Below are positions 9,403 to 32,789 of a DNA stretch of 40,374 bases, piece by piece; positions within the stretch are counted from its first letter, which is position 1, and each line of letters opens with the position of its first letter. A model generated the notes under the pieces. It searched no databases. It was not told where the DNA came from and was given only the letters and a program-made list of their open reading frames with translations. The translations under genes and the position numbers were made by a program. The stretch is from an uncultured Eubacteriales bacterium (GTDB lineage Bacteria > Bacillota > Clostridia > Christensenellales > Borkfalkiaceae), in assembly GCA_905211955.1 (NCBI GenBank), contig CAJMCT010000001.1, positions 1 through 40,374 of the forward strand, in the 5' to 3' direction.

Positions 9403-10139
9403 TAATATCCCCCGTTTAGACGAGATTTAAGATTTTTAGGAGCCATAAGTTTCCATTTAGAATTAAACTCTATATCTTTATACTCGTCTCGTAAAAAATA
9501 TTTTATCTGATTGGTTAGTTTGCTTTTACACTCTTCAAAGAACGAATCGTTCATCATAAATTTGTCTTGAAAATGTTCTAACACGTAGCCTGTTTTTTGA
9601 TATAGAAATACCGAATCGTATGCTTTTAACGTTTCAAGTAGTTTTGTTTCGTCTAAAACGCGAATTTGGTCAAGCGCATTTAAGATTTCGTCAATTCCAC
9701 CGCCTGCGTCAATATCGTCAAGGCAGTCAATAACCGTACGTTCAAGAGACGTTACGCGAACCGCGGCGGTTACTATATTCATAATTTGAACGTCGTGTTT
9801 TAGGGGTTTACGAACATAGTCGATATCGTCAAAAGTAAAATCGTTGAAACGCTTTTTACTACCCACCGTTACGGTATTAAAAACTTGATTAGCCACGCCA
9901 AAATATTCAAAAGCAGAATGATAGCACACGAAAGCATCTTCAGCGATTTTTGTAGCAAGCTCAAACTTTGTCGTAAGCGGATATCCCGACACGTCAACGT
10001 GAACGTATAACCCGTTGCGAACCTTAACTATTTTTTTGGAACGAACTTGCCCCGCTATCCAATTTTCGTATTGTTTATCATTTATAAAATTGTCTATTAC
10101 GTCCTTTTTTGTAAACGTATAAGGGATAAATTTTGCCAT
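9402..10139 (-). CDS. abiEi: AbiEi-family antitoxin / transcriptional regulator
   Basis: 245 aa. Sits directly upstream of, and overlapping, the AbiEii gene. The N-terminal wHTH-like region plus C-terminal domain is typical of AbiEi. The call rests on context and general sequence resemblance. Confidence 0.7.
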   Translation of the reverse strand: MAKFIPYTFTKKDVIDNFINDKQYENWIAGQVRSKKIVKVRNGLYVHVDVSGYPLTTKFELATKIAEDAFVCYHSAFEYFGVANQVFNTVTVGSKKRFNDFTFDDIDYVRKPLKHDVQIMNIVTAAVRVTSLERTVIDCLDDIDAGGGIDEILNALDQIRVLDETKLLETLKAYDSVFLYQKTGYVLEHFQDKFMMNDSFFEECKSKLTNQIKYFLRDEYKDIEFNSKWKLMAPKNLKSRLNGGY

Positions 10140-11394: not shown

Positions 11395-13075
11395 TCAAAT
11401 GTATACTCTGACAATGAGGTCTTCCCACTGATTGGGTCTTAACATTCCTTCTCTCTCTTTACGATATGTTTTCGCCTCGTTATAGTCTATCTTAAATGAC
11501 CAAACCATTTTTTTCTTTTCGTTCGGTTTCTCAATCAAATCGAAATCCATATACCACTCATAACAAGTTTCGCTTCGCGGAATAACGGTATCAACAAATT
11601 GCGAGATTATATCTCTATCCACATAATGCTCCGTAAAATCCATTTTTTGCAAAAGGAAATTCTGTATTTTCCCCTCTACGCTATCGCTGTCCGTTCTCGT
11701 TTCTACGCCTGCTTCAAATGCGAGTCTCTGTTGTACAACTTTTTCTCTTTCTTTTTCTATTTCAGATTTATATTCCAAAAATTCTTCTTTGGAAATTTCA
11801 TCTTCCAATCGCATTCGAGTCAAACGTTTCATTTTCTCGTCCAATTTAGCAATGTCTTGATTTAACCTATCTTTTAGAGCATCAGTCTGTCTGCGTCCCT
11901 CGTGGACCCCGACTTGATAAAGAGAAGAAACCTCATATAAAATATCTTTTCTGTTTCCCCATAGTCCTGAAAAAATATGTCTTGCCATCAACTCCAATTT
12001 CCAATCACATATTTCTCGCAAATCGCAAGCTCTTCCCGGATCGATTCCGGCTTCATCCCTTACGCTTTTTGAACCATTATTTAATTGGTTATAGCATTTG
12101 TATCCGTAGATTATATCTCCGTTTTTGTTTTTTCTCCACTTATTTCGGCGCATACGATATCCACAACGACATTTCAGTTTTTTTACCCAAACGTCGCCAC
12201 TCGCATGAATCCCCGCAGTATGTATTACATCACCGTCAAGCGAAAAATAATGAACTTTACGTTTTCTTTGTTCTCTTATTTGCTTACATCGTTCCCATTG
12301 CTCTTCACTGATAATCGGCTCAAAATCACCTTTCACATACATATAAGAATCTTCATCGCGATTCCTTATTATCTTTTGGTCAAGAAAATTGTTTCTTCGG
12401 GATTTCAGATATGCGGGGTAACCTTTATAGGTAGAATTATGCAAGATACGAGAAATTTTTGAATTCTCCCATCGCACTAAACCTGAACTATCCTTACGAT
12501 GCCGCCGAATCATTTCATCACGAATTTGCGACATACCCATTCCAGCGCAATACAAATCATATATCATTTTTACGGTTTCGGCTTGTTCCGCATTTATAAC
12601 ATATGTTCCTGTATTCTTGTCTCGATCGTAGCCGAGAATATTGCCGTTTCCGTATAGAACGCCCTTGTCGCGACTAATTTTCTGCCCCGCACGAACGCGC
12701 TCGGACGTTTTTCTGCTCTCTTCCTGTGCAAGCGTAGCCATAATCGTGAGTCGAAGTTCGCCGTCACCGTCCATCGTCCAAATGTTATCTTCGACGAAGT
12801 AAACTTCCACACCGTAATTCTTCAAATCTCTCGTGACCACAAGAGTATCTACTGTATTTCGAGCGAAACGGCACACCTCTCTTGTTACAATAAGGTCAAA
12901 CTTCTTTTGCTTTGCATCTTGAATCATTTGCAGAAACGCAGGTCTTTTCTTTGCTTGCGTTTCCGTGATACCTTCATCCACATACTTTCTCAACACCATC
13001 CAATTTTGATGCCTTGTTGCAATATCGTCATACCACTGAATTTGATTTTCCAAAGCCGACAACTGCGCTTCATGT
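11395..13075 (-). pseudogene. Large serine recombinase, 3' portion of a gene split by the transposon insertion (outer-element recombinase)
   Basis: Has resolvase, recombinase and Zn-ribbon regions but no N-terminal catalytic YxRxS segment and no ATG. The frame is open upstream only to the TAA of the neighbouring gene, and the ORF-track M is a TTG. The missing 32 codons are at 28838-28935. Confidence 0.8.
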
Positions 13076-13077
13076 TC

Positions 13078-13101
13078 GGATGAGTAAACGATAGGGAGAA
13101 T
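13078..13101. repeat. Left terminal inverted repeat of the transposon
   Basis: GGATGAGTAAACGATAGGGAGAAT matches the reverse complement of the right end, AGATGAGTAAACATAGGGGAAAC. 20 nt match with two 1-nt indels. Confidence 0.7.
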
Positions 13102-13110
13102 ATGCAGCCG

Positions 13111-14799
13111 TTAAAAGATTTCGGCTACACGACTTCCTTTCACTTTATACCCGTGCGTGCTTTCCGCACCGATAAATTTATAAATAATTCTGATTTCCTG
13201 TTTGTGTGCGCTTCCGTCGGCATACTTCTCGCCTATATAAATCCTGTCGATGAAATTATTCAGTATTTCGGGTGTAAGTCCCTCGATTTCCGTATAACTA
13301 TTGACGACCTTCAGAAACTCACGAATATTGCTCTCTTCGTCGTTTACAAGATCTAAAGCCTTTTTCAACTCAAGGATTTCGCTCTTTAAAGCCGTTTGTT
13401 CCGCCTCGTATTTTTTCGCCAACAAATCAAAGCGTTCGTCCGAAATTTTACCGGTTACGTTGTCTTCATACAGGTTTGCAATGATATCGTCAAGCGTTTT
13501 TATACGATTTTCCGCTTTTACAATTTTCGTTTGCGCCGAGAGCCGCACGCTCCGCATTTCTTTTACCGAACATTTACGATACTTTTCGATAAACTCCGAT
13601 TCGTGCGTTTTCACTTCGTTCATCACCCGTTTAATATCTTCCAGAACCAATTCGTTCAACACCCTCTTCAGAATCGAATGCGCCGTACACTGAATTTTCG
13701 TCCGTCTGTTGTACTTTGAGCAAACGTAAAAATCATAGTTCCTGTTTTTTGCAACACGTCTTAAAGTGATAGGAAATCCGCAATCGGCACAATATAACAA
13801 TCCGGCGAAAATATTGATATCGTCAAAGTGATTTTTCACAACCCTTTTTACCTGCGTCAACTTCTGCGCCAGATCAAACGTTTCCTTATCGACAATCGCT
13901 TCGTGGTGATTTTCGATAACCTTCCATTCGGACGGATCGCGATAGACAAACCGTTTGTTTTTATACGATTTTCTCGTCGTTTTGAAATTTACGAGATGTC
14001 CGATATAATTCGGATTACGCAAGATTTTATAAACCGTGCTTCTGTGCCATAAATACGGTTCGGTCGTGTCGTTCCGATACATATTCCTGCCCTGTTTCAG
14101 ATAAAACGCTTTCGGGGTGTCGTAGCCATTTTCGGTCAGTATTTTCGCTATTGCAAGTGCGTTATAGCCGTTTACGCATAGTCTGAATATCTCCCGGATT
14201 GTCGGCGCGCACCTTTCGTCTATCAACCACTTGTTTTTGTCGTTCGGATCTTTCATATATCCGAGCGGCGGCGTGTTCGTCAGCGGTTTTCCCGATTCGC
14301 CTTTATTCCTTATCACCGCGCGTATTTTTTTGCTCGTATCTCTCGCAAGCCATTCGTTGAAAACGTTTTTGAACGGTATCAATTCGTTATCCGAGCCGTT
14401 TTCGCTATCCACGTTATCGTTTATCGCTATAAAATGAATATCTTTTTCGGCAAACGTAAATTCCGTAAGATAGCCGACTTTCAGATAATCTCTTCCGAGC
14501 CTCGACATATCTTTTACGATTATCGTTTTCACTTTTCCTTCGTCTACGTCGGACATCATTCTTTGAAAATCCGGGCGATTGAAATTCGTTCCGCTGTAAC
14601 CGTCGTCGATATAATATTCAATATTCCGGTATCCGTGTTGTTTCGCATACCGCCCGAGAATATCTCTCTGATTTTTGATACTGTTGCTTTCGCCCTCGGT
14701 CCCGTTATCGTCTACGCTGAGCCTGCAATAAAGCGCGGTTATTACCTCACCTCCGTTTTTTGTTCTTTTATTTTTATTTGCCGTTTGTAATTCTAACAT
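13111..14799 (-). CDS. Large serine recombinase (TnpX/TndX-like transposase)
   Basis: Catalytic motif ALYCRLSVDD...SIKNQ, DDGYSGTNFNRPDFQRM, SRLGRD, a recombinase domain and a Zn-ribbon (CADCGFP...YVCSKY). The stop lies 33 nt from the element end. Confidence 0.9.
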   Translation of the reverse strand: MLELQTANKNKRTKNGGEVITALYCRLSVDDNGTEGESNSIKNQRDILGRYAKQHGYRNIEYYIDDGYSGTNFNRPDFQRMMSDVDEGKVKTIIVKDMSRLGRDYLKVGYLTEFTFAEKDIHFIAINDNVDSENGSDNELIPFKNVFNEWLARDTSKKIRAVIRNKGESGKPLTNTPPLGYMKDPNDKNKWLIDERCAPTIREIFRLCVNGYNALAIAKILTENGYDTPKAFYLKQGRNMYRNDTTEPYLWHRSTVYKILRNPNYIGHLVNFKTTRKSYKNKRFVYRDPSEWKVIENHHEAIVDKETFDLAQKLTQVKRVVKNHFDDINIFAGLLYCADCGFPITLRRVAKNRNYDFYVCSKYNRRTKIQCTAHSILKRVLNELVLEDIKRVMNEVKTHESEFIEKYRKCSVKEMRSVRLSAQTKIVKAENRIKTLDDIIANLYEDNVTGKISDERFDLLAKKYEAEQTALKSEILELKKALDLVNDEESNIREFLKVVNSYTEIEGLTPEILNNFIDRIYIGEKYADGSAHKQEIRIIYKFIGAESTHGYKVKGSRVAEIF

Positions 14800-15543: not shown

Positions 15544-16578
15544 TTACTTATGATTATTGTTTCTGCCTTGTTTTTCTTGCTTTTTGCGTTCTTCTTCGAT
15601 TTCCGCTTCTATCTGTTGTAACCTCGGAACTTGCCGAACGACGTCGAGCGTAAAGAGCGAAAGAACGGAATCGAAAAAGCTACCGATTGTTTTTGGCTTT
15701 CCGTGGACGATACGCTCGTATTCTTTCGGATTAGTTCTTGCAAGTGTTTTTCCCGCGTGGATATAACGATTATCGTTATCCCTTTGTCTTTGTAATGCTT
15801 CCGATTTCCGCGCATATTCGAGCGTTTCGTCCATAGCCTTTGTAAGCCGTTTTGAAAGGTCGTTGTTGTCTGCCGTTAAAGCGATTACTTGTTCCTGCAA
15901 CTTTCCGCGTTTCCGTGGAATATTCCCGCTTTTTGCCTCGGTTAAAGCGTCCGCATAAACCTGATTTTCTTCCCGTATGGCTTCCGCTTGCTCGATTATC
16001 TTTTTTGCCTTAAATTCTGCGGTGGAAAGGTGTTTTTTCTGACTACCTTCTTTTCCGCGCTGTAAACCCCAACGTTTTCCGACGGATTCATAAAAATCCG
16101 TCTGCAACTGCTGTAACTGCGGTTTATCGAAAAGTTGTTTACTGCAAAGTCTGCCGTCTTTTGTTACGGGCATCAGGTTTAAGTGCATATGCGGCGTTGT
16201 TTCGTCGTTATGAACAACCGCCGCGATAATGTTTTCTTCGCCGTAACGCTCCGCAAAAAACTTGTAGCAGTCCGAGAAAAAGTTATATTGTTCTATCTTG
16301 GCTAAACCGTCGAAAAAAGTTTTATCCGACCCTAACACAAACGAGTTCATTACAACTGCGTCTTTGCGCGGAGATAAGCCTAACTCTTTTATTCTGCCGT
16401 TTATGAACTCCGTGTAAGTTTTGCCGAAATATGGCGTGAAGCGATAATTGTTTCTCGTCCGCTCGCTGTCTATTTGTGGATTGTCCGACTTGTATTTTTC
16501 GTCCCGTTCGTTTTCCTTTTCGATAGGCGCGACGTCTTGTTTATGGTATTTCTCCATATGACACACTAAATATGAAAT
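15544..16578 (-). CDS. MobV-family relaxase (Mob/Pre plasmid recombination enzyme, TnpZ-like)
   Basis: Mob_Pre motifs include AAVVHNDETTPHMHLNLMPV (HxDE...HxH). The canonical N-terminus MSYLVCHMEKY requires an ATT start at 16578, 9 nt after AGGAGG. A conservative ATG is at 16557. The 36-codon extension in the ORF track lacks an RBS. Confidence 0.85.
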   Translation of the reverse strand: MSYLVCHMEKYHKQDVAPIEKENERDEKYKSDNPQIDSERTRNNYRFTPYFGKTYTEFINGRIKELGLSPRKDAVVMNSFVLGSDKTFFDGLAKIEQYNFFSDCYKFFAERYGEENIIAAVVHNDETTPHMHLNLMPVTKDGRLCSKQLFDKPQLQQLQTDFYESVGKRWGLQRGKEGSQKKHLSTAEFKAKKIIEQAEAIREENQVYADALTEAKSGNIPRKRGKLQEQVIALTADNNDLSKRLTKAMDETLEYARKSEALQRQRDNDNRYIHAGKTLARTNPKEYERIVHGKPKTIGSFFDSVLSLFTLDVVRQVPRLQQIEAEIEEERKKQEKQGRNNNHK

Positions 16579-16685
16579 GATGATTTTCCTCCTGAAATTT
16601 GTTTTTATTCTCATTGAGCAAAGTGTGTAGAATTTCCTCTGCCGACTGTTTTTATCAGTGGGTTCACAGCCTCGCAGAGCCCACA

Positions 16686-16717
16686 ACTTCGCCTGCGAAG
16701 TATAGTGGGCTACACTT
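16686..16717. other. Candidate oriT / RSA site for the MobV relaxase
   Basis: Hairpin ACTTCG-CCTG-CGAAGT (16686-16701) overlaps AAGTATAGTGGGCTACACTT (16698-16717). That segment resembles, from memory, the pMV158 oriT core AAGTATAGTGTGTTATACTT. It lies just upstream of mob. Confidence 0.45.
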
Positions 16718-17132: not shown

Positions 17133-17645
17133 TTAGTTAATGCCGCATTCCGATTCACTAATTAGAAGCGGTAAAAGCCATTTTAATATCCAACGCTTTG
17201 TCGTGTCGTAATTTGAATCGTAAAACACCGCGCCGACAATCGCTTCGATATAAGGATCGTGTCCTTTATTTACTACTTTTTCGTGATCTGGAACATTCGA
17301 ATCCGATTGGAAGTGTTTTGCGTTGTATGCATATCCGATTAAACCGCATTTCAGCATAATATTATGCATAACTTCATTATTTTCAAGTTTACTTTTTATC
17401 TGCGTAATCTCGCCTTTTGTAGTTATTCCTTTCCGATAGAGATAATCGGCAATAACGGATTTCAATACAGTATCGCCGATTGTTGCAAGCCCGTCGTTAG
17501 TGTATTCGCTATGGTTCTTTCCCTCTCCGAAAACTTCTATTTTTTCCGATCTCATTGCCTTTGAAAGCCACGCGATATCGTTAAAATGGTAATGTATTTT
17601 AATTTCAAGTTCGCGCATTTTTTGATATACAACGACTCTATCCAT
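17133..17645 (-). CDS. RNase III-domain-like protein (Mini-III-sized, no dsRBD); operon gene 7
   Basis: 170 aa. NDGLATIGDTVLK (17472-17498) aligns to the RNase III signature NERLEFLGDAVL. DPYIEAIVGAVFYD aligns to the second catalytic block DxxEAxxGA. The ATG overlaps the upstream stop by 1 nt. Confidence 0.55.
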   Translation of the reverse strand: MDRVVVYQKMRELEIKIHYHFNDIAWLSKAMRSEKIEVFGEGKNHSEYTNDGLATIGDTVLKSVIADYLYRKGITTKGEITQIKSKLENNEVMHNIMLKCGLIGYAYNAKHFQSDSNVPDHEKVVNKGHDPYIEAIVGAVFYDSNYDTTKRWILKWLLPLLISESECGIN

Positions 17646-18190
17646 CAGATTTTATCTCCATTGAATACAATTCTATTAGACAAATTCACTTCCACGGATT
17701 TACCGTTTTTATCTATATCAAACCAAGAAATATCATTTTTATATCTGTCCGTCAAGCATAAAATGCGTTGATTTTCAGAGCCGAGTAACCTGCGTTTTGT
17801 TTCTTTTTCTTCCAAAACGTATTCGCCATCAAGCACAAGGTCTACGCCGGCAAGAAAGTCTGAAACTTCTTCGTATTTTCTGCCCGTAAACGATATAATG
17901 CCAAGCCCGAGTTTTTTTATTTCGTTGGTTAAAAACGGAAGATTATGTTGACAAGTAGGTTCTCCGCCGGAATACGTTACCCCTTCAATTCCAAATTCGT
18001 CAATCGACTTTTTTATTACCGAAATAATCTCGTCGATCGACATAATATGGCGCGCAATAAACGGCTGGTAATCAGGATTACAACACTCGTTACAATGAAT
18101 ATCGCAACCCTGAAACCATATACACAATCTTTTGTGCGGACCTTCTGTTTCCGTACAACGGTTTATACTCGCAACGTTAAACTTAATCAT
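17645..18190 (-). CDS. Small radical-SAM protein of the NrdG/glycyl-radical-activase-like type; operon gene 6
   Basis: FQGCDIHCNECCNPD contains CxxxCxxC (18083-18106). GGEP motif (YSGGEPT). ~181 aa from ATG 18190, which overlaps the upstream gene by 8 nt. The ORF-track start at 18208 is a TTG. Confidence 0.65.
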   Translation of the reverse strand: MIKFNVASINRCTETEGPHKRLCIWFQGCDIHCNECCNPDYQPFIARHIMSIDEIISVIKKSIDEFGIEGVTYSGGEPTCQHNLPFLTNEIKKLGLGIISFTGRKYEEVSDFLAGVDLVLDGEYVLEEKETKRRLLGSENQRILCLTDRYKNDISWFDIDKNGKSVEVNLSNRIVFNGDKI

Positions 18191-20021
18191 TGTCAAAATC
18201 AAATTCAAGCCCGTTTTTCGTCGTTTTTACTACGATTTTCGAGCCTTTCATCGACGGCAATTCTTCTTTGTTTTCAAACATAAACATAGCAAGTTCGTCA
18301 AGCAATTTATCATTGATGGCGTTAAGAATATCACGACCGCCTTTACTGCTGTCCGCTCCGCCGAGAACGTAATCTATAAATTTAAGTTCGTCTTCAAATT
18401 CAAGGTCGATACGATATTTTTCCGATATTGCTTTCTGGACCGGACGAAGTTTCGATTTTGCAATTTTTACGCTAAACTCTCTGTCTTTGATGAAGTTGAA
18501 CGGAATGATATTGCTGTAACCGATACGACCGAGAATTTCGGGACGTTTGATTTCGTTATCGAAATAGTTTTTAACGATTTTTATAAACTCATCCGCCACT
18601 TCTTCGTTTGAACCGTTCGAAGACACTTCGGACGCTCCGAGATTTGACGTGAATATAATTACGCTTTCGCTGAAATAAACCGTTTCGCCTTTGCTGTCGG
18701 TAAGTCTGCCGTCTTCGAGAATTTGCAGAAAAATATCCAGAATTCTCGGATTCGGTTTTGCTGCTTTTTCGATTTCGTCGAATAGAATTATGCTGAACGG
18801 TTTTTCTTTCACGGCGTTAGTAAGTTGCCCGCCTTCTTCATAACCGACGTATCCCGGAGGCGCGCCGATAAGTTTCTGATCACTGTTTTCCTGCGCATAT
18901 TCCGACATATCGAAGCGAATACAAGCCTGTTCGTCGCCGAAAAGGAATTTTGCAAGCGCCTTTGAAAGTTCGGTTTTACCTACGCCGGTAGGTCCGACGA
19001 AAAACAGCACGCCTTTCGGTGCAGAACGAGAAGACGATTTATGTATTCCCGTAAGTCCCATATAAGCCTTAACAACGACTTTTTCAATCTTTTCGATAGC
19101 TTCTTCCTGACCGACTACACGTTCGCTTAAAATCTTTTTGATGTTTTTAACCGACTTATAGTCGAGTTTTTCCCAAGGATTATCTTTTTCGCCGTACTTA
19201 AACAGCAAGTACAACTGCTCGAACGGCATTTTGCCTTCTTTTCTCGAAAGGCGCGCCATCTGAACGATTTCACGGTTTGTAAAATCGTCGAGCATATCGA
19301 CGTATTCGTTAAATTTGTCCGAAGTCAGGAGCGTTTCTCCGGGTTTGAGTTTTACGTCGAATCCGCTCTCGATTTTTTCCATCATTTTAGCGCGTTCTTC
19401 TCTGTCGGGTTTTGAAAGAGTAAGACAAGCGACTTCGGGGTTGCCCTGATAGAAAGAAATCGGGAACATTGCCAGTTTGCTCGTAATGAGAATAACCGTG
19501 CTTTCGTTTACTTCGGCAGACAAATACTCCGTTTTTTTATCTTTTATCGCTTTCCCGAGCATTGTGATAAGTTCTCTCTCGTCGGGCGGTAATTGTCCGC
19601 CGCTTGAAAAGAGATAATCCGCCCAATTCAGCACGAAAGCAGTTTTTCTATTCGGCTTCTTCAAGTTTTTGAATACGATATTGAAAATCTCGGCAGGCTC
19701 TTTGAACTGACCGCTTCCCGTTTTTTCTTCCGCTTGCGGTTGATTATCTTCGTCATCGTCAAAGGAATAAGCGTCTCCTTCAACTTCGACTTCATCGATA
19801 ACGGAAAGCCTTGAAACGTCTCCGTCTATGCCGTCGATACGATCCCAATACAAAACGTCGTCGTATTCCATTCCTTTGAGCATGTCCGTAAGGTATTGTT
19901 TCAGATCGACGATTTGCTTTTTGTCGTTAAGATACACGTCACCGACGTTGCCGTCGAGTATTACGCATCTTTTGATACCGACTTCGCGTTTTAACCTGTT
20001 AAACGTTGTTTGTAATGCCAT
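18183..20021 (-). CDS. AAA+ ATPase with a ClpA/ClpB D2-type module and a degenerate N-terminal half; operon gene 5
   Basis: VVGQEEAI...FFVGPTGVGKTELSKALA (Walker A at 18972-18995), LIGAPPGYVGYEEGGQLT and IILFDEIEKA (Walker B) are classic Clp D2. The first ~330 aa have no Walker A. The start is ATG 20021, preceded by GAGGTG at 6 nt. Confidence 0.75.
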   Translation of the reverse strand: MALQTTFNRLKREVGIKRCVILDGNVGDVYLNDKKQIVDLKQYLTDMLKGMEYDDVLYWDRIDGIDGDVSRLSVIDEVEVEGDAYSFDDDEDNQPQAEEKTGSGQFKEPAEIFNIVFKNLKKPNRKTAFVLNWADYLFSSGGQLPPDERELITMLGKAIKDKKTEYLSAEVNESTVILITSKLAMFPISFYQGNPEVACLTLSKPDREERAKMMEKIESGFDVKLKPGETLLTSDKFNEYVDMLDDFTNREIVQMARLSRKEGKMPFEQLYLLFKYGEKDNPWEKLDYKSVKNIKKILSERVVGQEEAIEKIEKVVVKAYMGLTGIHKSSSRSAPKGVLFFVGPTGVGKTELSKALAKFLFGDEQACIRFDMSEYAQENSDQKLIGAPPGYVGYEEGGQLTNAVKEKPFSIILFDEIEKAAKPNPRILDIFLQILEDGRLTDSKGETVYFSESVIIFTSNLGASEVSSNGSNEEVADEFIKIVKNYFDNEIKRPEILGRIGYSNIIPFNFIKDREFSVKIAKSKLRPVQKAISEKYRIDLEFEDELKFIDYVLGGADSSKGGRDILNAINDKLLDELAMFMFENKEELPSMKGSKIVVKTTKNGLEFDFDND

Positions 20022-20026
20022 TATTT

Positions 20027-21112
20027 TCACCTCTTATTTGTGTTTGTTTTTACCGTTTGGTACTTCATAGACAATATTTTATCGGGATTGCTCCAAATTT
20101 CCTGCGTTTTGGTAACATGTAAACCGTAAACTTCTTCCAAATCGTTCAGAAAAGGCTGTATATCCTTTTGGCACGCCTGTCCTTCGTAACCTCGGAAGTC
20201 GTAAATAAATTTACCGTCCAGAAACACGCGGAATTCCGCTTTTTCGCCGCTTGCTTTCAGTCCGACCAAAATCACTTCGTTTGTATCGCGTTTGATTTTT
20301 ATATTCTTTTTATCCACGATAAATCCGCGGGCGGTTATCGCCGACATTATGATTTTCAGCGACTTCTGACGGATTTTTTCGCCTACGATTTCTTCCGTCG
20401 CCGCCGATCTTATTTCGGAAAGCGGTTTATTCTCTGTTATGACTTTATCGATGATAGTCTTTTCAACTCTTGCGGCTTCGAGTTCGCGGCGAATCTTTTC
20501 ACGCTCTTTTTCGATACGCGATTCATAAGTTTCGTTTTTGAGTTCTCTGCCCGCTCTGATTAGATCATCGCCCGAAAGCGTATCGTTTTTCAGATATGCA
20601 AGGTAAGCAAACTGCCTTTCCGTTTCGTCCTGAATGGAATCGAGAAGTTTTTGAATCTCGGCGGGGATTGTAACGACTCCGTTTGCTTTATCTCTCAATC
20701 TTTTTTGATTTTCTTCGATACTGTTTTCAAGTAAACTTTGATAAAGCGCGCGCATTTCGACTAATCGTTTAGCCGCCAACTCGTTTACTTGATTTTGTAA
20801 TTCTTGCGCCGCTTTATCCACGTTATCGGCAGAATTCAGTCTTAATCTGTCGCTATCACCGCTTACAACGCCTTTTTTCGCTACTTCTTTTGCCTGCGCT
20901 TTTAAGTTTTCGATTTTTCTAACGAATGAATCTCGTTTTTCTACAATCAATTGTTGTAATGCCGCCGTCTGACTATTCTGTAAGCTTTGCGAGCCGTTTT
21001 CTATATCCGAAAGTATCTGGTCGAGTTCGGCGATCTGCCTTTCGGCAACTTCGCAAATGCTTTCGCATCTTATCGCTATCGCCTCGTAGTCTATTTGTAC
21101 CTGATGGCTCAT
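20027..21112 (-). CDS. Coiled-coil protein with a ~100-aa C-terminal globular domain, unknown function; operon gene 4
   Basis: The first ~260 aa have heptad-rich, low-complexity Q/E/K/L/A composition. The start ATG 21112 forms an ATGA overlap with the stop of gene 3. No recognisable catalytic motif. Confidence 0.6.
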   Translation of the reverse strand: MSHQVQIDYEAIAIRCESICEVAERQIAELDQILSDIENGSQSLQNSQTAALQQLIVEKRDSFVRKIENLKAQAKEVAKKGVVSGDSDRLRLNSADNVDKAAQELQNQVNELAAKRLVEMRALYQSLLENSIEENQKRLRDKANGVVTIPAEIQKLLDSIQDETERQFAYLAYLKNDTLSGDDLIRAGRELKNETYESRIEKEREKIRRELEAARVEKTIIDKVITENKPLSEIRSAATEEIVGEKIRQKSLKIIMSAITARGFIVDKKNIKIKRDTNEVILVGLKASGEKAEFRVFLDGKFIYDFRGYEGQACQKDIQPFLNDLEEVYGLHVTKTQEIWSNPDKILSMKYQTVKTNTNKR

Positions 21113-23338: not shown

Positions 23339-26300
23339 TTACTCTCCTAAAATATCTTTCGCCGTAAGTATTCTTCCGCGGAAGTTTATCGTGTCGATAA
23401 TTTCTCTGTATACGGGGAAGTTGATTTTATCGCGACTGTGATCGCCTTCGAGATCGGGAAGGTCGATTATGCCCGCTTCCGATAAAAACTTTTTCGAGCC
23501 GACAATAATCAAAAGTTTTCTCGCTCTTGACAACGCAACGTTGATACGCTCGAATTTTTTGATAAATTCCGCATCATACCTCGCGCCGCTCGGATTTCTT
23601 ACCATCGAAACGATAATGATATCCCTTTCATCGCCTTGGAAATCGTCAACGGTACTGATAACAAGTTTTTCGTCCGGTTTACCCGAAAAGCCCGTAAATT
23701 GATAGCCTTTACGTTTCTTTTTTATTAGTCCCGCCTGATCGCCATATGTACAAATAATACCCGCGCTCGGTCTTTCGTCGATTTTCCTTGACGGATCAAC
23801 GATAATTTTATGCTCGGAAACAAGCACTTTCGCCGCTTTGTCGAGTTCCTTTAATAGCGTTATCGCAACCTGCGCTTCCTGCTCGTTGATTTTGGACGTA
23901 CTGCCTTCGAATGCGCTCGATTCTTTTTGGTCGCAATCCACAAAATATATGTGCCGTTTGGGATCGATAACGGTATTTCCGTTGATTTTTACGGTAAGAT
24001 TATGCTCTTTTTCGTCGTCTTGTTGTTTTTTTCCTACAACAAGACCTTTACCATTACCGCCATAGAAATGATTGAACACTTCCATAATGTGGCTGTGGCA
24101 ACGGTATTGCTTATTAAGCATTACTCTGAAATCGCTCGGAACTTTCTCATACAGCGTTTTGAAGAAACATTCTTCATATAACTTTGTATATCCGTCGTTG
24201 ATTTCCTTTGTGATTTTTTCTTCGTCGAGTCCGTCGAAATCATCTCCCCGCATATGCCGCAAATCGTACATAGGCGGAAGTTGACGATGGTCGCCGACGA
24301 GAATAACCGTCTTGCCGTATAAAATAGGTATCAGCAAATCGAGAAAAGACGACTTTGACACTTCGTCCACGATTACAACGTCTATGCCTTGCGTTCTGAT
24401 ATCTACCGATTCGATTCCGTATTTACCGAGTTCGGCAAGTTGCGACGGCGTGAATCTGTCGCGGCTTGTGCAGGTAATACCGAAAACGTTTGCCGAATTG
24501 TAAAGTTCTCTCGTATATGCGGCTCTATCTTCCTCTAAGATATCTTCCTGCGACAAGTATTTTACGATATCCTTATACATCGGAATTTTTATTTTGTTTT
24601 CGGAAGACGAAGCATTATACTCGGTTTCGAGTTTATTCCACTCGTCGCTGATAATGTCGAAAGCCGTTTCAAGATTGTCCGAATCGTATTCCCTGACAAT
24701 TCCGAAATCGCGGAAAAATCTCATAATCTTTTGTTTTAGTACGGAATTCAACTCACCGTATTCTTCAATATCGGGATTTTCTCCGAGTTTTTCGTATAAA
24801 CGTTTTTTCTCGCTTATTTGGATTTTTAGTTCGTTTATTTTATCGGATATAGCGTTTTCGTTGTCTATATCGCCATTGATTTTGAATTCGATTATATTTC
24901 TCTGTGTGTTTACAATATCGGCAAGTTTTGCCTTGAATTGCGCAAGTTCGGAAGGCAATTGCTTCAATATTTCTTTTGCACCCGTAATACCGGGGACGAG
25001 AGAGTAAATCACGCTTCCGGCAATATCGAACTCCGAATTATTTTCGTATTCTTTAATCTTTTTGCCTACGGCAATCAACTCGCTTTGATTCTTTTTATAC
25101 TCTTCGTAATTAAAATCTCCTTCATTCGGTGCTTCGTCCGTATCGGGATCTCGCAAACCGCTCAAAACGTTTCGCAAAGCACGCTGGCGATTTTTTAACT
25201 CCACAATCGCGTCTTCGCTCAAAAAACGCTCTAATTCTTTGTTTATTGCCTGAATATCGGCATTAACAAGCTCGGCAACCTTATCGAGCGTTACCTCTTC
25301 AAAACAAGCAAAGCACTTTAACAGGCGTTCTACTTGTTCGGCGTATTTATCCAATACGTTGCTATCTGCGCCTTCGCCCGAAAAACGATACGATTCGACG
25401 TATTTAAGCGTTCTCGTATACTTTTCGGTATCTTCTTTTGCGGCAAGAAGTTTTTCTCTTAAAACTTCGTTTTCTCCGGTTAAACGGTTTATTTCTGAAA
25501 GCAAATTGTTCCGCTTTCTTTCCGTATCTGCATTCTCCCGTTGCAATTTCAAAAGGCGATCGTAATCGAGGCGAAGAGATTTCATCGTCGAATCGAATTC
25601 TTCTCTCGTCTCTTTGTAATTGTCGTATCTTGCTACTTGCTTTTCAAGGTTTCCGCAAATATTGAGATAGAAATTGTCTACAAGCCTTTCGGGACTGTAA
25701 TTCGTTTCTTTACCGTTTTGCGACGGAATAAGACGAAGCGGACGTATTTCGGGGATTTTAGGCAATCTGTCAAATACGTTATCGATTGCCTTATGTGTTT
25801 CGGAAGATATTAAAACTTTCTTACCGCGTTTCGTCAGTTGCGCCGTAATCTCGGCTATAACCTGTGTTTTTCCCGTTCCCGGAGGACCTTGCAACAAAAA
25901 TATACTTTCGCTTTGAAGCGCGCGTTTTACGGCAAGTTTTTGTCTGTCGTTCAAACTTTCAAGACACCACTCGGGATCTTTGATCTCTTCTACGGAAGAC
26001 TGCGCAAGCGTTTCGGGCGAAAAAAGATACGTCGGTAAGAACGGATTCTTAACGTACCCGCCCAAAATAGAAGTCAACGCCTTTTCTTGTCTGTCTATTT
26101 TTGCTTTTTCCGCACGATTATCATAAGTAAGATACCTCGGCGCAATTTCCTCGATTTGCTTTTCGATTTCTTTTACTTTGTCTGTGATATCTTGCGGACG
26201 GAAATAAATCTGATATCGGCGTATCGTTTCGTTCTCGATTTTATCAGCCTTATCTTCGTTTAATTTTTGAAGTAAAACGTTTTTTATTTCGGTTTTCTCG

Positions 26301-27964
26301 GAATCGATACCCTCTGCATATTGAAATTCTAATTGATTTTTCTTTTCCTTTTTAAGTTTATCCAGTTCTTCCTGACAACGTATTGCCAAACTCTTTTGCT
26401 TTTTCTCGACAAGTGCCATATTGCGGCGAATATAATGGTCACGCAAAGATACCTGTGCCTTCGCCATTTCTATACGCTTATCGTATTCATCGTTCAATGC
26501 CGATTCATCACCGTATAAAGCATCGATCTGTTTGTCTTTTTCGGCGGTAGACAATTTTGAGCGTCTAATTTGGTCTATTTTGGAACGAATTGAGCCGAGT
26601 CGTTTCTTCCTTTCGGTTTCAATCGGCGTGATAAGTTGAGTAATCTCGCTTTGGTATGCCTTGTATACATCTTTATCGGAATTATTTATAACGTCGGAAT
26701 CAAGTCTATCGTAAAGCTCTGTTTTGTATTCAATAAGTTGTGCGTCGTATTTTTCTTGCGTTTTAGCAGAAACGCCTGCCATATAACGATTCACCTCGGC
26801 AAGAATTATACCGTTATACTTGCTGTCGATTTCTCCGTATCTTGCAGTCAATTCTTTTTCGTAATTCTTGTCGAGAGCAGATAAATCAGGTTCTATATCT
26901 ATGTACGCGAATAAATATCGTTCACCGAGAAGATACGATTTGATACTTCTGATATTACCTTTATCGTCCGATTTCGGCGGATACGGCGACAACCCCATAG
27001 CGTCCCGAGTATATCGGTTCAGGTTAACCTCAAACTTCGGTTTTCCTTTCCCGTTTCTACCAACCGTTTCGGATAATATTTCCTTTCTGTTCTTTTCTAT
27101 CGCAACGCAAATCAGCGGAAAACCGTCGGCGCCCGCCACTTCTTTCGATAATATTATCTGCTCGCTTTTGCCGAAATCTTTAATTCCGTCCAAAAGAAGT
27201 CCTGAAAAAGCCTCTTCGTTTCTGCGATAGGATTCTTTCGTTATCATATATGCGTCGCATACGTGAACGTCGGTAATTTCTTCGCAACGCTCGGATTGTT
27301 TTCCTAAATAGTATCTGCGAAAATCGATATACCGCAACCATTGATTAAAAATGCCAATCGCCTCGGCGGGATTCGGAACGGGAAATAGTTTAGTGGCTAT
27401 TTCATTTACAAAGTCGTTTGTAAGAACAGAATCGTGCAATTCGCCGTTACCGTAATCAGGAACCGAAAACGTATTTCCGGTATTTCTGCTATATATTTCC
27501 TTCTTTGCAAACGCACAAAGCGACGAACAAAAAACTCGCTTTTCTCCGTATTTTACCGTTCGTCTGTCTATCAAATCTATCCCTTTTACGGATATTTCCG
27601 TAACGTTCCCAAATGTAACGTCGCCGATTATTATAAAGTCGTATGTTTCGGGCAGAATATGGCGAGAGTTTTCATCCGCTTCGGGGCGAATTACGATATT
27701 ACGCAAAATCTTATTCCCACGCTTATTTTCGTCCATTGTTCTGTCAAACGAAGGCAAAGATACGTTGTAATATTTTTCAGGCGTAGACGGAAACGTGTAT
27801 CCGATAAATTCTTGAAAAGTGTCGGGCGCATAACCGCCGAGTTTTCTTTTCAGCGTTTCGTATTGCTCGTTTAACGATTGTGTGAAAAAGTCGTTTCTCC
27901 CCCAAGCCTTATCACCTAAACCTTTATCCAAATTATCCAAGAAATTCAGATATAAGTAAGCCAT
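23339..27964 (-). CDS. 1541-aa Upf1/DNA2-like superfamily-1 helicase with large uncharacterised N-terminal and coiled-coil regions; operon gene 2
   Basis: Motifs read: I LLQGPPGTGKTQ (25865-25888, about residue 693), II VVIVDEVSK (D about residue 1200), III VGDHRQLPP, IV LNKQYRCH, V TVDDFQGDERDIIIV, VI NVALSRARK. Confidence 0.8.
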   Translation of the reverse strand: MAYLYLNFLDNLDKGLGDKAWGRNDFFTQSLNEQYETLKRKLGGYAPDTFQEFIGYTFPSTPEKYYNVSLPSFDRTMDENKRGNKILRNIVIRPEADENSRHILPETYDFIIIGDVTFGNVTEISVKGIDLIDRRTVKYGEKRVFCSSLCAFAKKEIYSRNTGNTFSVPDYGNGELHDSVLTNDFVNEIATKLFPVPNPAEAIGIFNQWLRYIDFRRYYLGKQSERCEEITDVHVCDAYMITKESYRRNEEAFSGLLLDGIKDFGKSEQIILSKEVAGADGFPLICVAIEKNRKEILSETVGRNGKGKPKFEVNLNRYTRDAMGLSPYPPKSDDKGNIRSIKSYLLGERYLFAYIDIEPDLSALDKNYEKELTARYGEIDSKYNGIILAEVNRYMAGVSAKTQEKYDAQLIEYKTELYDRLDSDVINNSDKDVYKAYQSEITQLITPIETERKKRLGSIRSKIDQIRRSKLSTAEKDKQIDALYGDESALNDEYDKRIEMAKAQVSLRDHYIRRNMALVEKKQKSLAIRCQEELDKLKKEKKNQLEFQYAEGIDSEKTEIKNVLLQKLNEDKADKIENETIRRYQIYFRPQDITDKVKEIEKQIEEIAPRYLTYDNRAEKAKIDRQEKALTSILGGYVKNPFLPTYLFSPETLAQSSVEEIKDPEWCLESLNDRQKLAVKRALQSESIFLLQGPPGTGKTQVIAEITAQLTKRGKKVLISSETHKAIDNVFDRLPKIPEIRPLRLIPSQNGKETNYSPERLVDNFYLNICGNLEKQVARYDNYKETREEFDSTMKSLRLDYDRLLKLQRENADTERKRNNLLSEINRLTGENEVLREKLLAAKEDTEKYTRTLKYVESYRFSGEGADSNVLDKYAEQVERLLKCFACFEEVTLDKVAELVNADIQAINKELERFLSEDAIVELKNRQRALRNVLSGLRDPDTDEAPNEGDFNYEEYKKNQSELIAVGKKIKEYENNSEFDIAGSVIYSLVPGITGAKEILKQLPSELAQFKAKLADIVNTQRNIIEFKINGDIDNENAISDKINELKIQISEKKRLYEKLGENPDIEEYGELNSVLKQKIMRFFRDFGIVREYDSDNLETAFDIISDEWNKLETEYNASSSENKIKIPMYKDIVKYLSQEDILEEDRAAYTRELYNSANVFGITCTSRDRFTPSQLAELGKYGIESVDIRTQGIDVVIVDEVSKSSFLDLLIPILYGKTVILVGDHRQLPPMYDLRHMRGDDFDGLDEEKITKEINDGYTKLYEECFFKTLYEKVPSDFRVMLNKQYRCHSHIMEVFNHFYGGNGKGLVVGKKQQDDEKEHNLTVKINGNTVIDPKRHIYFVDCDQKESSAFEGSTSKINEQEAQVAITLLKELDKAAKVLVSEHKIIVDPSRKIDERPSAGIICTYGDQAGLIKKKRKGYQFTGFSGKPDEKLVISTVDDFQGDERDIIIVSMVRNPSGARYDAEFIKKFERINVALSRARKLLIIVGSKKFLSEAGIIDLPDLEGDHSRDKINFPVYREIIDTINFRGRILTAKDILGE

Positions 27965-29624: not shown

Positions 29625-29981
29625 TTATTTTACATAAACGATTTCATTTAAGATTTCTTCTTCGATAAGCCGTTGCATTTCGGTTTCCCTTTTCAGGTTT
29701 TCCATAAAGTCCGCCGACTTTTTGAACCGCTCTTCTTTCGAAAATTTTTCGTACATCGTTTCGTACAGTTCATCGGCGGCTTTATCTACGCCGTGCAGGT
29801 ATTCAGGAAGATTCGCAATCGTCCAATCGATTCCTTTGTCCTCCAAATACTGTTTAGCAAGCGTTCCGTACTTGCCGTAAACGTGCTTTTCGGGTTTAAC
29901 AGCCTTTTGATAAACCTTGATTTCCGCTACGGTCAATCCCTCGCCCGCTTCCGCTTTTCGCATTACTTTTGCTTTATTCAT
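29625..29981 (-). CDS. TnpV-like transposon-associated protein
   Basis: General resemblance, from memory, to clostridial TnpV proteins (YGKYGTLAKQYLED...PEYLHGVDKAADELYE...EMQRLIEEEILNEIVY). The likely start is the internal M (MNKAKVMRK) at 29981. Confidence 0.5.
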   Translation of the reverse strand: MNKAKVMRKAEAGEGLTVAEIKVYQKAVKPEKHVYGKYGTLAKQYLEDKGIDWTIANLPEYLHGVDKAADELYETMYEKFSKEERFKKSADFMENLKRETEMQRLIEEEILNEIVYVK

Positions 29982-30196
29982 AGTTCCACCTCCGATTATC
30001 TTTCGTCGTATCAATACGATAGCATCCGAATCTGTATTTGTCAAGCTGTTTTGACCACTTTTCATAAAATATTTTCAGAATCTGTCCGTAAAACCGATTT
30101 TGCACTAAAACTATTGATATTTGCATAGTTTTAGCGCATTTTCGGCATAGAAAAGGAACGCTCCGAAGAACGTTCCTTATACCTGTATATATTTTA

Positions 30197-31249
30197 TTAC
30201 TTTGAATTGAAATCTGTTTTCTTTTTTTTAGGAGTATTGCCACCGTTCGCAGTTTGACTCGGACGAATTATTTTCATACCGTATGCGCTTTCGTCTTTGC
30301 CCGCCACCTCGGCGACAAACTCCGTTACCGTCAATTCAGCGGTTTGATTTGTCCTGCCATTTTTCAGTCTGACCACATAGTCTTTCGGTAAATGAAATAC
30401 AATCGCCTTTTCGCTTCGGTTAATGCTAATAAACTTATTCGGAATCTTATATGCATAATCTCCGTACTTATCGTGCTCCGGCATTGCAAATATTCTGTAC
30501 TCCTTATAACTCGCAATCTTCGACGCCGACGAAACGGATATATGTACCGTATTTTTTTCGTATTCCTCGTCTTTTCCGAACATTCCGCTGTCGATTATTT
30601 TTTTAAGCCCCGTAATTGCTTCTTCATAATTGCAAGGTGTATACAACATCGTCCGCGTATGTTCTTCATAGTCCTTTTTATAACACTCTGTTTCTATCAC
30701 TTGTTCAAGCAAAGCAGGAATGTCTGCGTTATTCTGCGCCGATACACATAGCGAGTGATATTTCCGATCCTCCCTGACTCTATGTATAAGCGCGCGGAAC
30801 TCTTCGTTTAATTCCACTCTTCCAAGCAATTGATATATGTCGTAAATATGACGGGAATGCTTTTGCATATCGTCCAAAAGCATATAATCGCACAACGCAA
30901 ACACTTTGTCTACAAGCGTCCTTTCCATTGTTTGGACGTGAATATCGAAAGAAAGAAGCCCGTATTCTTCCGCTTGTTTTGTAAAACCGTTCGCTTTCAA
31001 CCATTCTCCGATAAGAGAATCCGCCTGTTTCACTTCTTCCGGATAACATTCCTGTATAAATACCGTTTCCGCCTTGATGACAGGATCAATCTCATCGTTC
31101 TCAAACAAAAGCGGATAACTTATCTGATAGCAGTTATAATCCCTTCTGCTTCGCGTGTTTTCAAGGTTGTTAATTGTCAGTCCGAGTTCTTCGCAGATTT
31201 TTACAATCGTCGGTTTAACTATCTTTCTTTGCCCTTCCGTACAGCAATG
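30197..31249 (-). pseudogene. AbiEii-family toxin gene, 3' portion (split by the lnu cassette)
   Basis: The frame is open from 31249 (HCCTEGQRKIVKPTIVKICEELGL...RRDYNCYQISYP...ERTLVDKVFAL...SRHIYDIYQL). It has no start codon of its own. It is directly preceded by the in-frame lnu stop codon. Confidence 0.7.
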
Positions 31250-31741
31250 TTATTTTGATAAACTTTCAAGAATTGAAATATCATGCTTATCTTTATCTCT
31301 TAATTCATAACCTGAATGGAAAACTCTTTGGCCTTTTAAGGATATACAAGGAATTGTTTTTCCTTCAAAAAAAGCACTACCAAAGTAATCTTTTTCAAAC
31401 TCATACCAGCCACCCTCTAAATCAGCTTGTTTTGAAGTTCCGTCCTCACTTAAAACGAACGGGTGAATGTCTAAGTAACCAAGTTCATCACTATATAACT
31501 CTATTCTAACCGGTTTCCAGTCTGTATCAATTTTATAGCCCAGATTCAAAAGCACATTTAACAATTTTTCCGTATGTTGAGCATCAAAATTTATATCTAT
31601 ATCTCTATGAATTCTTGTTTGTTTACCAGCTAAAATATCTACACCCCATCCGCCATCCAACCAGTATGTAATTCCAGTATTTTCGAATAATTCTATTACT
31701 TTCATTAAATCTTCTTTTGTTGTTATTTCTTTTCTACCCAT
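31250..31741 (-). CDS. lnu: Lincosamide nucleotidyltransferase, Lnu(A)/LinA family
   Basis: 163 aa. Strong resemblance to Lnu(A): ITYWLDGGWGVDILAGKQTRIHRDIDINFDAQHT, GYLDIHPF, IPCISLKGQRVFHSGYEL. AAAGGAG RBS. Visibly more AT-rich than the flanks. Confidence 0.85.
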   Translation of the reverse strand: MGRKEITTKEDLMKVIELFENTGITYWLDGGWGVDILAGKQTRIHRDIDINFDAQHTEKLLNVLLNLGYKIDTDWKPVRIELYSDELGYLDIHPFVLSEDGTSKQADLEGGWYEFEKDYFGSAFFEGKTIPCISLKGQRVFHSGYELRDKDKHDISILESLSK

Positions 31742-31762
31742 ACAAAGTCTCCTTTACAACTT

Positions 31763-32020
31763 CTAATTTGTAATAATCATTCTAAGGTGTTCGCTGTCAA
31801 GCGTTAAGTCTATATCTTCCGAAAACCTGTTGATTGCCTTATGACATTTGGAAAGCGAAGTACCACCCTTAAAAATAAGTCCAGAAAGTTCTTCGTTAAG
31901 TCGTTTTAATACCAACGTAACGTAATAATCTTTTTCGACAAGTGCAGGAGAAATATTTAACCCTCTGCTTACTGCCTGTACCGCTTCGGTAAAATCCTCT
32001 TTATTCTCATGCAAGTTCAT
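31763..32020 (-). pseudogene. AbiEii-family toxin gene, 5' portion (NTase motifs), truncated by the lnu cassette
   Basis: FKGGTSLSK and RFSEDIDLTLD are the AbiEii nucleotidyltransferase motifs. The frame ends a few codons into the inserted DNA. It overlaps the AbiEi-like gene by 14 nt. Confidence 0.7.
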
Positions 32021-32627
32021 TTAGTATATTGCTCCCTATCAGATTTTTTAAAGCTTTTGCCGGAAACTTCATTGCTACGTCCATCAACTGCTCTTTCGTA
32101 ATACCTTTTTCACGCATAAAATTGATCAGGCGTCTCCTTGCAAATTCGTCAATTTTCTCGCCGTTCAAATTGTTAAACAACTCCATAATCATATACGCAT
32201 TTGCATTGTCTTTGTTGATCTCGAAACGCGATTTACGCAAAATAAACGTCCTTCCGTCCATCTTTACTTCTCTTCGTTTTGCAGATTCGTTGTTCGACAC
32301 GATTTCATAAATATTGGGAACTTGCGTCGTTACGGAAAACATATTCTGTAGCTTTAATCCTCCGTACACACCGAACACTTCGCCGTTCCATTTCAAATAT
32401 CTACGGGCTATTACCGTGTCCGCCGTTATCGTGGACAAACCGATAAACGTATTACGCGGGATATAATATATTCCTTTTGCGAAATTAACTATTTCCTTTT
32501 TCTCTTCGGCTTCACGTATAAACCTGAAAATCTGCGGTCTTGAATAATCGGGGAAAAGCCCGATGATTTCTTCCGTATATATAGGTTCGTTCGTAGCAAA
32601 ACTGCTTTTAACTCTTTCGGTAAACAT
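32007..32627 (-). CDS. AbiEi-family antitoxin-like protein (second AbiE locus)
   Basis: 206 aa. Sits directly upstream of, and overlapping, the AbiEii 5' fragment. The N-terminal wHTH-like region is YSRPQIFRFIREAEEKKEIVNFAKGIYY. The call rests mainly on context. Confidence 0.55.
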   Translation of the reverse strand: MFTERVKSSFATNEPIYTEEIIGLFPDYSRPQIFRFIREAEEKKEIVNFAKGIYYIPRNTFIGLSTITADTVIARRYLKWNGEVFGVYGGLKLQNMFSVTTQVPNIYEIVSNNESAKRREVKMDGRTFILRKSRFEINKDNANAYMIMELFNNLNGEKIDEFARRRLINFMREKGITKEQLMDVAMKFPAKALKNLIGSNILNELA

Positions 32628-32789
32628 AGACTTAACCTCCTTTTACAGACATATTATGCTCAATCTTCGTTTATATGATACTACAATTTACCTAAAAAGT
32701 CAAGAGTAATATAATGACAATTCCATAAATTTTAGAAAATCGCGAAACAATATTGCCAAAAACACCTTTTCAGGACTCTTTTTACCGTT

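Follow-up and report, generated by a model that had tools for sequence, protein, structure and literature searches.

AbiE operons, such as those of Lactococcus and Streptococcus agalactiae, consist of overlapping abiEi and abiEii genes with a promoter directly 5' of abiEi. In the transposons Tn4451 and Tn4453, the cargo gene catP follows tnpV. Integron cassettes, e.g. lnu(F)/linF transcribed from Pc, present one short gene, which brings a ribosome-binding site and relies at least partly on an upstream resident promoter. The locus described here resembles each of these arrangements in part. In a 40,374-nt stretch of DNA from an uncultured Eubacteriales bacterium (contig CAJMCT010000001.1, positions 1 to 40,374; hereafter the window), an abiEii toxin gene is interrupted by an insert that matches the tnpV-lnu region of a Tn4451-like element and carries a gene of the lincosamide O-nucleotidyltransferase (lnu) family. 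We consider it likely that a tnpV-lnu fragment was captured once, by illegitimate recombination, into abiEii, an event that would have broken the toxin, placed lnu in the abiE transcript, and been selected for resistance.

Relatives of the window carry the interrupted gene whole. The intact AbiEii protein P0001 (426 amino acids [aa]; cluster n = 614) is two residues off a read-through of both window pieces and has a PADLOC AbiEii match of 1.2e-82 that ends at residue 296 of 426. In the DNA encoding it (L015), positions 1-770 match window 32552-31783 with 100 per cent identity and positions 769-2185 match window 31241-29825 with 99.3 per cent identity (blastn). The empty site reads ...GAACACCT-TA-CGGAAGGG..., with a single TA. 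Comparison of the intact allele with donor loci places the true junctions at 31240/31241 and 31783/31784, so that the insertion point lies at a TA between abiEii codons 79 and 80, the net gain in the window is 543 bp (181 codons), and zero target bases were lost. In three metatranscriptome runs with the intact allele, contigs skip exactly 543 nt, with 2 ambiguous bases. abiEii, one gene in relatives, has foreign DNA within it here, as an earlier note made from the letters alone had proposed; that the two pieces might be naturally separate genes, which would have spoken against that proposal, is contradicted by the intact homologs. The same note set the limits of the insert at 31248-31791, which is 7-8 nt off at each end, and pointed to a TGTT direct repeat at its borders. 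One TGTT copy lies inside the insert and the other outside it in abiEii, neither is at a junction, and the match is due to chance.

The interrupted operon is, by its gene content and profile matches, an AbiE type IV toxin–antitoxin, or abortive-infection, operon with a broken toxin. All four of its frames, namely abiEi, an 85-aa open reading frame (ORF), a 163-aa ORF, and an open C-terminal frame, have the minus strand as coding strand. A promoter-like site (TTGACT-17-TATCAT, 32675..32703, minus strand; 10/12 in a consensus scan) lies 5' of the intact 206-aa antitoxin/repressor gene abiEi (32007..32627), whose product matches PADLOC AbiEi PDLC02236 over its full length (6.6e-49) and Pfam DUF6088 weakly. 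The start of abiEii overlaps abiEi by 14 nt. Native codons 1-79 of abiEii, with the GG(T)S...DIDL nucleotidyltransferase motif, occupy 31785..32020 and are 100 per cent identical to the intact allele (L015 1-770). They open an 85-aa ORF (31763-32020; Pfam AbiEii profile positions 9-42) that runs 6 codons into the insert to a stop TAG at 31765-31763. Beyond the insert, native codons 80-426 (30197..31239; Pfam AbiEii positions 53-226; 99.3 per cent to L015 769-2185) lie in a frame that is open from 31249 down to 30197. The operon ends at an intrinsic terminator, GGAACGUUC-UUCG-GAGCGUUCC followed by UUUU (30151..30176, minus strand; fold -21.1 kcal/mol, z = -4.8). The overlapping genes, the strong PADLOC and Pfam matches, and the promoter directly 5' of abiEi are shared with the AbiE systems of Lactococcus and S. 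agalactiae; unlike theirs, the toxin here is 426 aa long with a ~130-aa C-terminal extension and is split. AbiEi and AbiEii are thus adjacent in one operon as in other AbiE systems, but the toxin frame is not continuous past codon 79.

The cut falls just past the nucleotidyltransferase motif (GGTSLSK...FSEDIDL). The split toxin is almost certainly inactive, as predicted from its frames, because six codons into the insert the N-terminal frame meets a stop, and the 3' piece lacks the catalytic motif and any possible start before TTG 31108. The earlier note's claim of toxin inactivation thus stands as to the split after the motif, and the loss of activity itself is read from sequence. The AbiEi repressor/antitoxin gene stays intact beside the split toxin, and another AbiE pair, at 8467-10139 of the window, is complete.

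The inserted fragment (31240..31784, minus strand) has 545 nt in common with the donor, with a TA at either end (31784-31783 and 31241-31240), and spans from the donor's -10 hexamer to 10 nt 3' of the lnu stop, with 42-44 inserted nt before the ATG. It contains a ribosome-binding site, AAAGGAG, at 31749..31755 (7 nt 5' of the ATG) and the lnu-like gene of 163 codons at 31250..31741. The lnu ATG is in the same frame as the AbiEii N-terminal piece, and the lnu stop TAA (31252-31250) is in the same frame as the C-terminal piece. The GC content of the insert is 31.4 per cent, compared to 38.9 per cent and 40.9 per cent in the abiE flanks. A repeat scan found neither inverted nor direct terminal repeats at either end of the insert; lnu is the sole gene ORF within, with no transposase or integrase in the insert; and inspection found no extended or imperfect microhomology between donor ends and target beyond the TA. 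The relative AT-richness, the TAA lying directly in the toxin frame, the lack of transposase, integrase, or inverted repeats, and a content limited to a ribosome-binding site and a Lnu(A)-like gene had all been noticed earlier, and each is borne out by the composition, a frame check, the ORF list and terminal-repeat scan, and the assignment to the Lnu(A)/Lnu(AN2) family by PF10706, NCBIfam, and alignments. The sole junction repeat is the dinucleotide TA on both sides. Since a junction ambiguity of at least 2 nt has a chance of ~17 per cent per random insertion at this base composition, the TA at both junctions says little on its own.

The source of the insert can be matched exactly. Window 31240-31784 is identical to positions 3958-4502 of L006 (100 per cent over 545 nt), which lie in a tnpV-lnu region of Tn4451-like layout. 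This layout, with a large serine recombinase, a helix-turn-helix gene, tnpV, and lnu in that order, is the commonest lnu context, and the same 5' leader after tnpV is found in 48 of ~80 copies examined. The insert carries 22 nt of the tnpV-lnu spacer, a stretch missing from other contexts. At the 3' end, all other copies examined run ...GCTGTA|ATTTCTAAGATAAATTNCAGTTTG, and only abiEii copies end at GCTGTA. We conclude from these alignments that the window holds part of a tnpV-lnu element, with cut points used nowhere else. The earlier note, which asked whether the same cassette recurs elsewhere and with what ends, had missed that the insert comes from this widespread context and that the usual ends are unused. 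Like catP in Tn4451 and Tn4453, the donor lnu lies directly after tnpV and beside a TnpX-like large serine recombinase and tnpW; unlike catP, the window lnu has left the tnpV context and retains only 22 nt of spacer. A TnpV-family gene is also present in the window itself (29625-30065), directly downstream of the abiE operon, and likewise in L017. It has no DNA similarity to the donor tnpV region at the relevant spacer.

The lnu gene is widely distributed. The exact Lnu protein is found in 18,853 blocks of a public contig collection, and lnu DNA in 62 stretches of species-representative genomes, mostly of Lachnospiraceae, Oscillospiraceae, and Erysipelotrichaceae, plus Collinsella. Four Campylobacter pTet plasmids carry lnu at 98.7-99.2 per cent identity downstream of tet(O). 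One of the four is the Campylobacter coli RM5611 plasmid pRM5611_48kb (H4/L004), on which the gene, at 98.8 per cent nucleotide identity, lies downstream of tet(O) in a short-ORF context and has the usual cassette ends, whereas the window copy is differently cut and lies inside abiEii. That short ORF (MTMIFDFEPWQLDIDIDLTKQL), with its own ribosome-binding site before lnu, marks the second commonest context (L002 3275-3375 and 23 further loci); it could be a leader peptide or a remnant of another cassette. In L001, the short ORF has been removed exactly between two TAGAA(G/T)TT repeats.

The 163-aa protein matches PF10706 over its full length (1.8e-60; residues 12-157 on profile positions 2-148/149). 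Among NCBIfam models, Lnu(AN2) ranks highest (252 bits), followed by Lnu(A) (197 bits) and Lnu(E) (193 bits), all under the allele cut-offs (340 bits for Lnu(AN2) and 300 bits for Lnu(A)). Gap-free alignments give 64 per cent identity to Lnu(AN2) and 52 per cent to the LinA/Lnu(A) structures 4FO1 and 4WH5, and the catalytic motif GGWGVD...HRDIDI is identical in the 4FO1/4WH5 and Lnu(AN2) alignments. The protein is therefore like Lnu(AN2) of Bacteroides NBU2-type elements, Lnu(A)/LinA of staphylococcal plasmids, and Lnu(E) in PF10706 fold family, length, and nucleotidyltransferase motif, and unlike them in that identity is just 64 per cent, 52 per cent, and similar. Macrolide–lincosamide–streptogramin resistance genes share a name at 80 per cent identity, and the window protein falls below that level for the named lnu genes. 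By domain and motif, then, it belongs to the Lnu(A)/Lnu(AN2) family without being an allele of a named gene, and the encoded enzyme would be expected to adenylylate lincomycin and clindamycin. The literature we searched yielded no phenotype for the gene; its sole mention there is the C. coli RM5611 copy, termed 'putative lnu(AN2)' at 64 per cent identity to Bacteroides Lnu(AN2), without a phenotype (PMC7518152). The unnamed lnu(AN2)-like gene has no AMRFinder call on the plasmids examined, yet it is among the most widespread genes of gut Firmicutes and has reached Campylobacter pTet plasmids, and resistome surveys probably undercount it.

Because there is no terminator between lnu and either abiEii piece, lnu lies within the abiE mRNA. 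No attC-like or terminator fold follows lnu in the window (10 nt past the stop, z = +0.2). The small hairpin that follows lnu elsewhere is weak (full cassette, z = -1.4) and is not retained by the insert, which makes the operon terminator at 30151-30176 the first strong one after lnu. In four metatranscriptome runs, contigs cover just ~30182-32646, with zero depth on neighbouring genes. The RNA contigs start at ~32620-32646, just downstream of the abiE promoter-like site, with zero depth farther upstream, and end at 30182-30259. Such coverage fits a promoter-to-terminator transcript rather than DNA carry-over. Three of the four runs hold the intact abiEii allele plus the tnpV-lnu donor. In run X1, the filled allele is represented by contig 31095-31784, which reads across the 3' junction, and contig 31755-32559, which reads across the 5' junction. 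Co-transcription of lnu with abiEi, which the earlier note had deemed probable, is supported by these junction-spanning contigs.

That note also described the cassette as promoterless, with only 45 nt before the ATG. The leader is indeed short (42-44 nt), but the description goes too far, as the insert retains the donor's -10 box and abiEii supplies -35-like hexamers. Specifically, the first six bases of the insert, TAGAAT, are the donor's -10 box, which in the donor is preceded by TGG to give an extended -10 (TGGTAGAAT). In the window, promoter-like sites with a -35 from abiEii and a -10 from the insert span the junction (31773..31807, minus strand): TTAACG (31807-31802)-17-TAGAAT (31784-31779) scores 9/12 in the consensus scan, and a perfect TTGACA (31800-31795)-16-GATTAT (31778-31773) scores 10/12. 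lnu is therefore probably also transcribed from a hybrid promoter. In run X1, depth is 19 upstream of the junction vs 32-50 downstream, a step that is compatible with extra initiation at the junction, contig depth being a weak measure. AbiEi reportedly autorepresses abiE in the Streptococcus system, and a junction promoter would be useful if it does so here.

The abiEii::lnu allele is rare. Three further loci, L016 (99.94 per cent over 10.3 kb), L017, and L018, have junctions identical to those of the window. The 85-aa N-terminal fragment protein, which marks the allele, is on record for just 6 blocks of the contig collection. The junction words are complete in two runs only, X1 (RNA, gut metagenome) and X25 (pig-gut DNA), and two of the three 3'-junction words are found in the pig-gut run X30. 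The allele was thus seen in a few gut samples, and the source is pig gut wherever labelled. Many pig and bovine gut runs hold 95 per cent of the region's words, and therefore contain the intact abiE operon and the donor as separate molecules. We searched for signs of the segment elsewhere: no copy with a non-A base after ...GCTGTA exists in 185,579 species-representative genomes, and neither a copy with a non-G base before TAGAATGATT... nor the donor 'scar' ACGGTATGG-TA-ATTTCTAAG exists in Joint Genome Institute (JGI) metagenomes. With other 3' ends, other 5' ends, and a donor scar all unseen, the TA-to-TA segment was rejected as a recurrent mobile unit. We read abiEii::lnu, on this distribution, as a rare one-off and as a new case of a familiar process, in which illegitimate recombination brings a resistance gene under the control of a resident operon, not as a new kind of mobile element.

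Such a capture may be pictured as follows. In a livestock-gut Firmicute, the AbiE operon of an integrative, mobilisable defence island would have received a 543-bp copy from the tnpV-lnu region of a Tn4451-like element. Entry at the TA between codons 79 and 80 could have occurred by a double template switch or by break-and-join with 2-nt microhomology, most likely as a single illegitimate event and neither by site-specific cassette recombination nor by transposition. The allele would then have been kept by selection, and livestock lincosamide use would favour it. The argument for a single illegitimate event proceeds by elimination, from the lack of a second site, the lack of terminal repeats, and ends used nowhere else. 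Microhomology-type deletions at other points of abiEii, in P0017 and P0036, add to the case. Several points weigh against this reconstruction. A clean insertion with the same dinucleotide on both sides is also expected from 2-bp-staggered transposition or from integration of a circle by a serine recombinase, and one event alone cannot prove the mechanism. The fragment extends strikingly little beyond the gene, with 42-44 nt upstream of the ATG and ~10 nt downstream of the stop, which suits selection and could also hint at a directed process. The junction RNA consists of assembled contigs from one run, contig depth is a poor expression measure, and some DNA carry-over is conceivable. Finally, the nearest named Lnu is just 64 per cent identical to the protein, whose lincosamide phenotype is a prediction.

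One directed process to weigh is a small non-autonomous mobile unit, with the 543-bp segment either integrated at the TA as a circle by a serine recombinase acting in trans (the circular joint would read …CATTGCTG-TA-GAATGATT…) or moved by a TA-duplicating transposase. The donor segment is indeed flanked by TA (GG-TA-GAATG ... GCTG-TA-ATTT), the empty target has one TA, zero target bases were lost, and the window encodes two large serine recombinases 17-20 kb away. Yet terminal inverted repeats are lacking, the three TA surroundings otherwise share nothing, a 2-nt ambiguity arises by chance in ~17 per cent of insertions, and no other 3' end was seen in the 185,579 species-representative genomes and no other 5' end or scar in JGI metagenomes. 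The lack of any second site weakens this possibility further, and we regard it as unlikely. Neither does the insert resemble an insertion sequence, a miniature inverted-repeat transposable element, or a transposon, as it has no terminal inverted repeats, transposase, or second site, and repeats only a TA. Integron cassettes are alike in that they carry just one short gene, equipped with a ribosome-binding site and at least partly reliant on an upstream resident promoter, but the window insert has no attC fold after lnu and no IntI or attI, is not at a recombination site, and keeps its own -10 box. A Pfam scan of the 24 larger window ORFs revealed no tyrosine recombinase. It is highly improbable that the window event arose by exchange at the ~20-bp palindromes that bound the lnu cassette, and at which it breaks, in many other contexts. 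The 5' palindrome (TTACAAATTAGAAGTTGTAA) is retained at 31754-31773, but it is internal to the window copy, whose 5' break falls 11 nt before the palindrome and 22 nt before the palindrome's central break point. Additionally, the 3' palindrome is gone, as the copy stops 33 nt short, whereas other lnu copies have both sites; the abiEii target (…GAACACCTTACGGAAGGG…) is unlike the motif; and the strict motif occurs 0 times in the window. It is the junction positions that refute such an exchange. Only the look of two ORFs would suggest that the AbiEii pieces are naturally separate genes or that the locus is an assembly chimera, and we attach almost no probability to either: the intact 426-aa protein belongs to a large cluster with matching DNA on both sides of the insert, and the same junctions recur in independent NCBI, ENA, and Logan assemblies as well as in RNA-derived contigs. 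A separate doubt concerns the cargo, which might be a Lnu-like nucleotidyltransferase with another substrate that confers no lincosamide resistance, the allele having been fixed by chance or for loss of the toxin alone. The scores under all NCBIfam Lnu allele cut-offs, the 'hypothetical protein' labels of the Campylobacter plasmid copies, which have no AMRFinder call, and the word 'putative', with no phenotype given, in PMC7518152 would be in line with another substrate. The full-length PF10706 match, the gap-free identity of 64 per cent to Lnu(AN2) and 52 per cent to crystallised Lnu(A) with GGWGVD...HRDIDI kept, and the very wide spread of near-identical copies through gut taxa and to pTet plasmids beside tet(O), a pattern to be expected of a resistance gene under selection, make this improbable. 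An illegitimate capture of a tnpV-lnu fragment thus remains our preferred reading. The locus would be a cleanly documented capture without mobile-element machinery, for which the empty site, the donor, the junctions, and RNA are all in hand and whose cost was a phage-defence toxin.

Outside abiEii, lnu displays a different kind of boundary. In other contexts, the gene is bounded on both sides by ~20-bp near-palindromes, TTACAAAT-N4-ATTTGTAA, with a variable centre; the copy inside the window insert reads TTACAAATT-AG-AAGTTGTAA (31754..31773, minus strand; inverted-repeat scan) and corresponds to the usual 5' cassette boundary. Inside the palindromes, similarity breaks off in no fewer than 11 unrelated flanks on the upstream side and no fewer than 9 on the downstream side. 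Across 566 kb of fetched loci there are 123 occurrences of the strict motif vs ~11 in shuffles, and the palindrome often follows a TATAAT box in the host element at a distance of 8-11 nt. The loci with palindromes include, besides the window site, L002 3270-3935, L082 1370-1860, L084 2400-2960, L092-L097, and L100 600-700. At one and the same pTet site, otherwise identical backbones carry a 140-aa ORF, a short ORF plus lnu, or lnu alone. The 140-aa ORF, which has no assigned function, is flanked by the motif at both ends in an Oribacterium chromosome, as is its relative (72 per cent protein identity) in phages, where it lies between terL and the portal gene. In the Erysipelothrix phage phi1605, only the 5' side of a Lnu(D)-like gene bears the motif.

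From these patterns, we raise tentatively, and with some doubt, the possibility that palindrome-bounded single promoterless genes form an undescribed cassette system of Firmicute mobile elements. A duller alternative is that the palindrome is a shared 5'-leader or RNA-stability element in which short-homology recombination happens to occur. If it were a true recombination site, it would amount to integron-like gene capture in Gram-positive conjugative elements, phages, and Campylobacter pTet plasmids, and, if confirmed, palindrome cassettes would explain the movement of lnu-type genes between conjugative elements, phages, and plasmids. The literature we searched held no description of the cassette motif or of a tnpV/tnpW cargo hot spot. 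A comparison by eye gave the palindrome no convincing match to XerC/D dif-like, integron core-site, or CTnDOT-type target motifs. At three loci, two diverged elements encoding an IS91-like Y2 transposase and a tyrosine integrase sit in the palindrome centre with AATT on either side (L011 1440-3975; L013 4520-7056; L056 2464-4990, minus strand), one of them at the lnu 5' site and two at the 3' site. These elements are a possible candidate source of enzymes for palindrome recombination.

The spot between terL and the portal gene is a cargo hot spot in a widespread phage group of gut Firmicutes, Streptococcus, and Erysipelothrix (L100-L104, L092-L097). Depending on the phage, it is empty or holds a Lnu(D)-like gene, a MerR-family regulator, the 140-aa ORF, or other small genes. 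We considered and rejected the idea that this hot spot is defined by the palindrome, as many unrelated morons occur there without the motif. On the pTet plasmids, 1-3 tandem ~100-bp units (…GAAAAAGGTNAAAAA…CATTGATAAGATTAGCGGTCAAGGCGAGAGGGAGTGAGGTG…) lie 3' of the cassette site, before a repA-like gene, and vary in number (L002 3940-4170; L082 1850-2000). They are probably iterons.

The interrupted operon has a defence-rich neighbourhood. Positions 270-28490 of the window make up a defence island that belongs to an integrative, mobilisable element and encodes a GmrSD/HEC-05-like system (270-2087), a type III restriction-modification system (3518-7863), the second, intact AbiE pair (8467-10139), the two large serine recombinases (11395-14799), a Mob_Pre relaxase (15544-16686), a PDC-M37B-like pair of an RNase III-like protein and an AAA_2 ATPase (17133-20030), and a MkoA-like helicase of 1541 aa (23339-27964).

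In relatives of this element, abiEii has been altered in other ways. Deletions or fusions represented by the proteins P0017, P0036, and P0002 join a LexA-S24 gene, a WYL gene, or another N-terminus to abiEii. The P0017 and P0036 fusion junctions have 2-nt and 5-nt microhomology, and one of them lies ~20 nt from the lnu insertion point. Across these lineages, abiEii has thus been broken repeatedly in this element.

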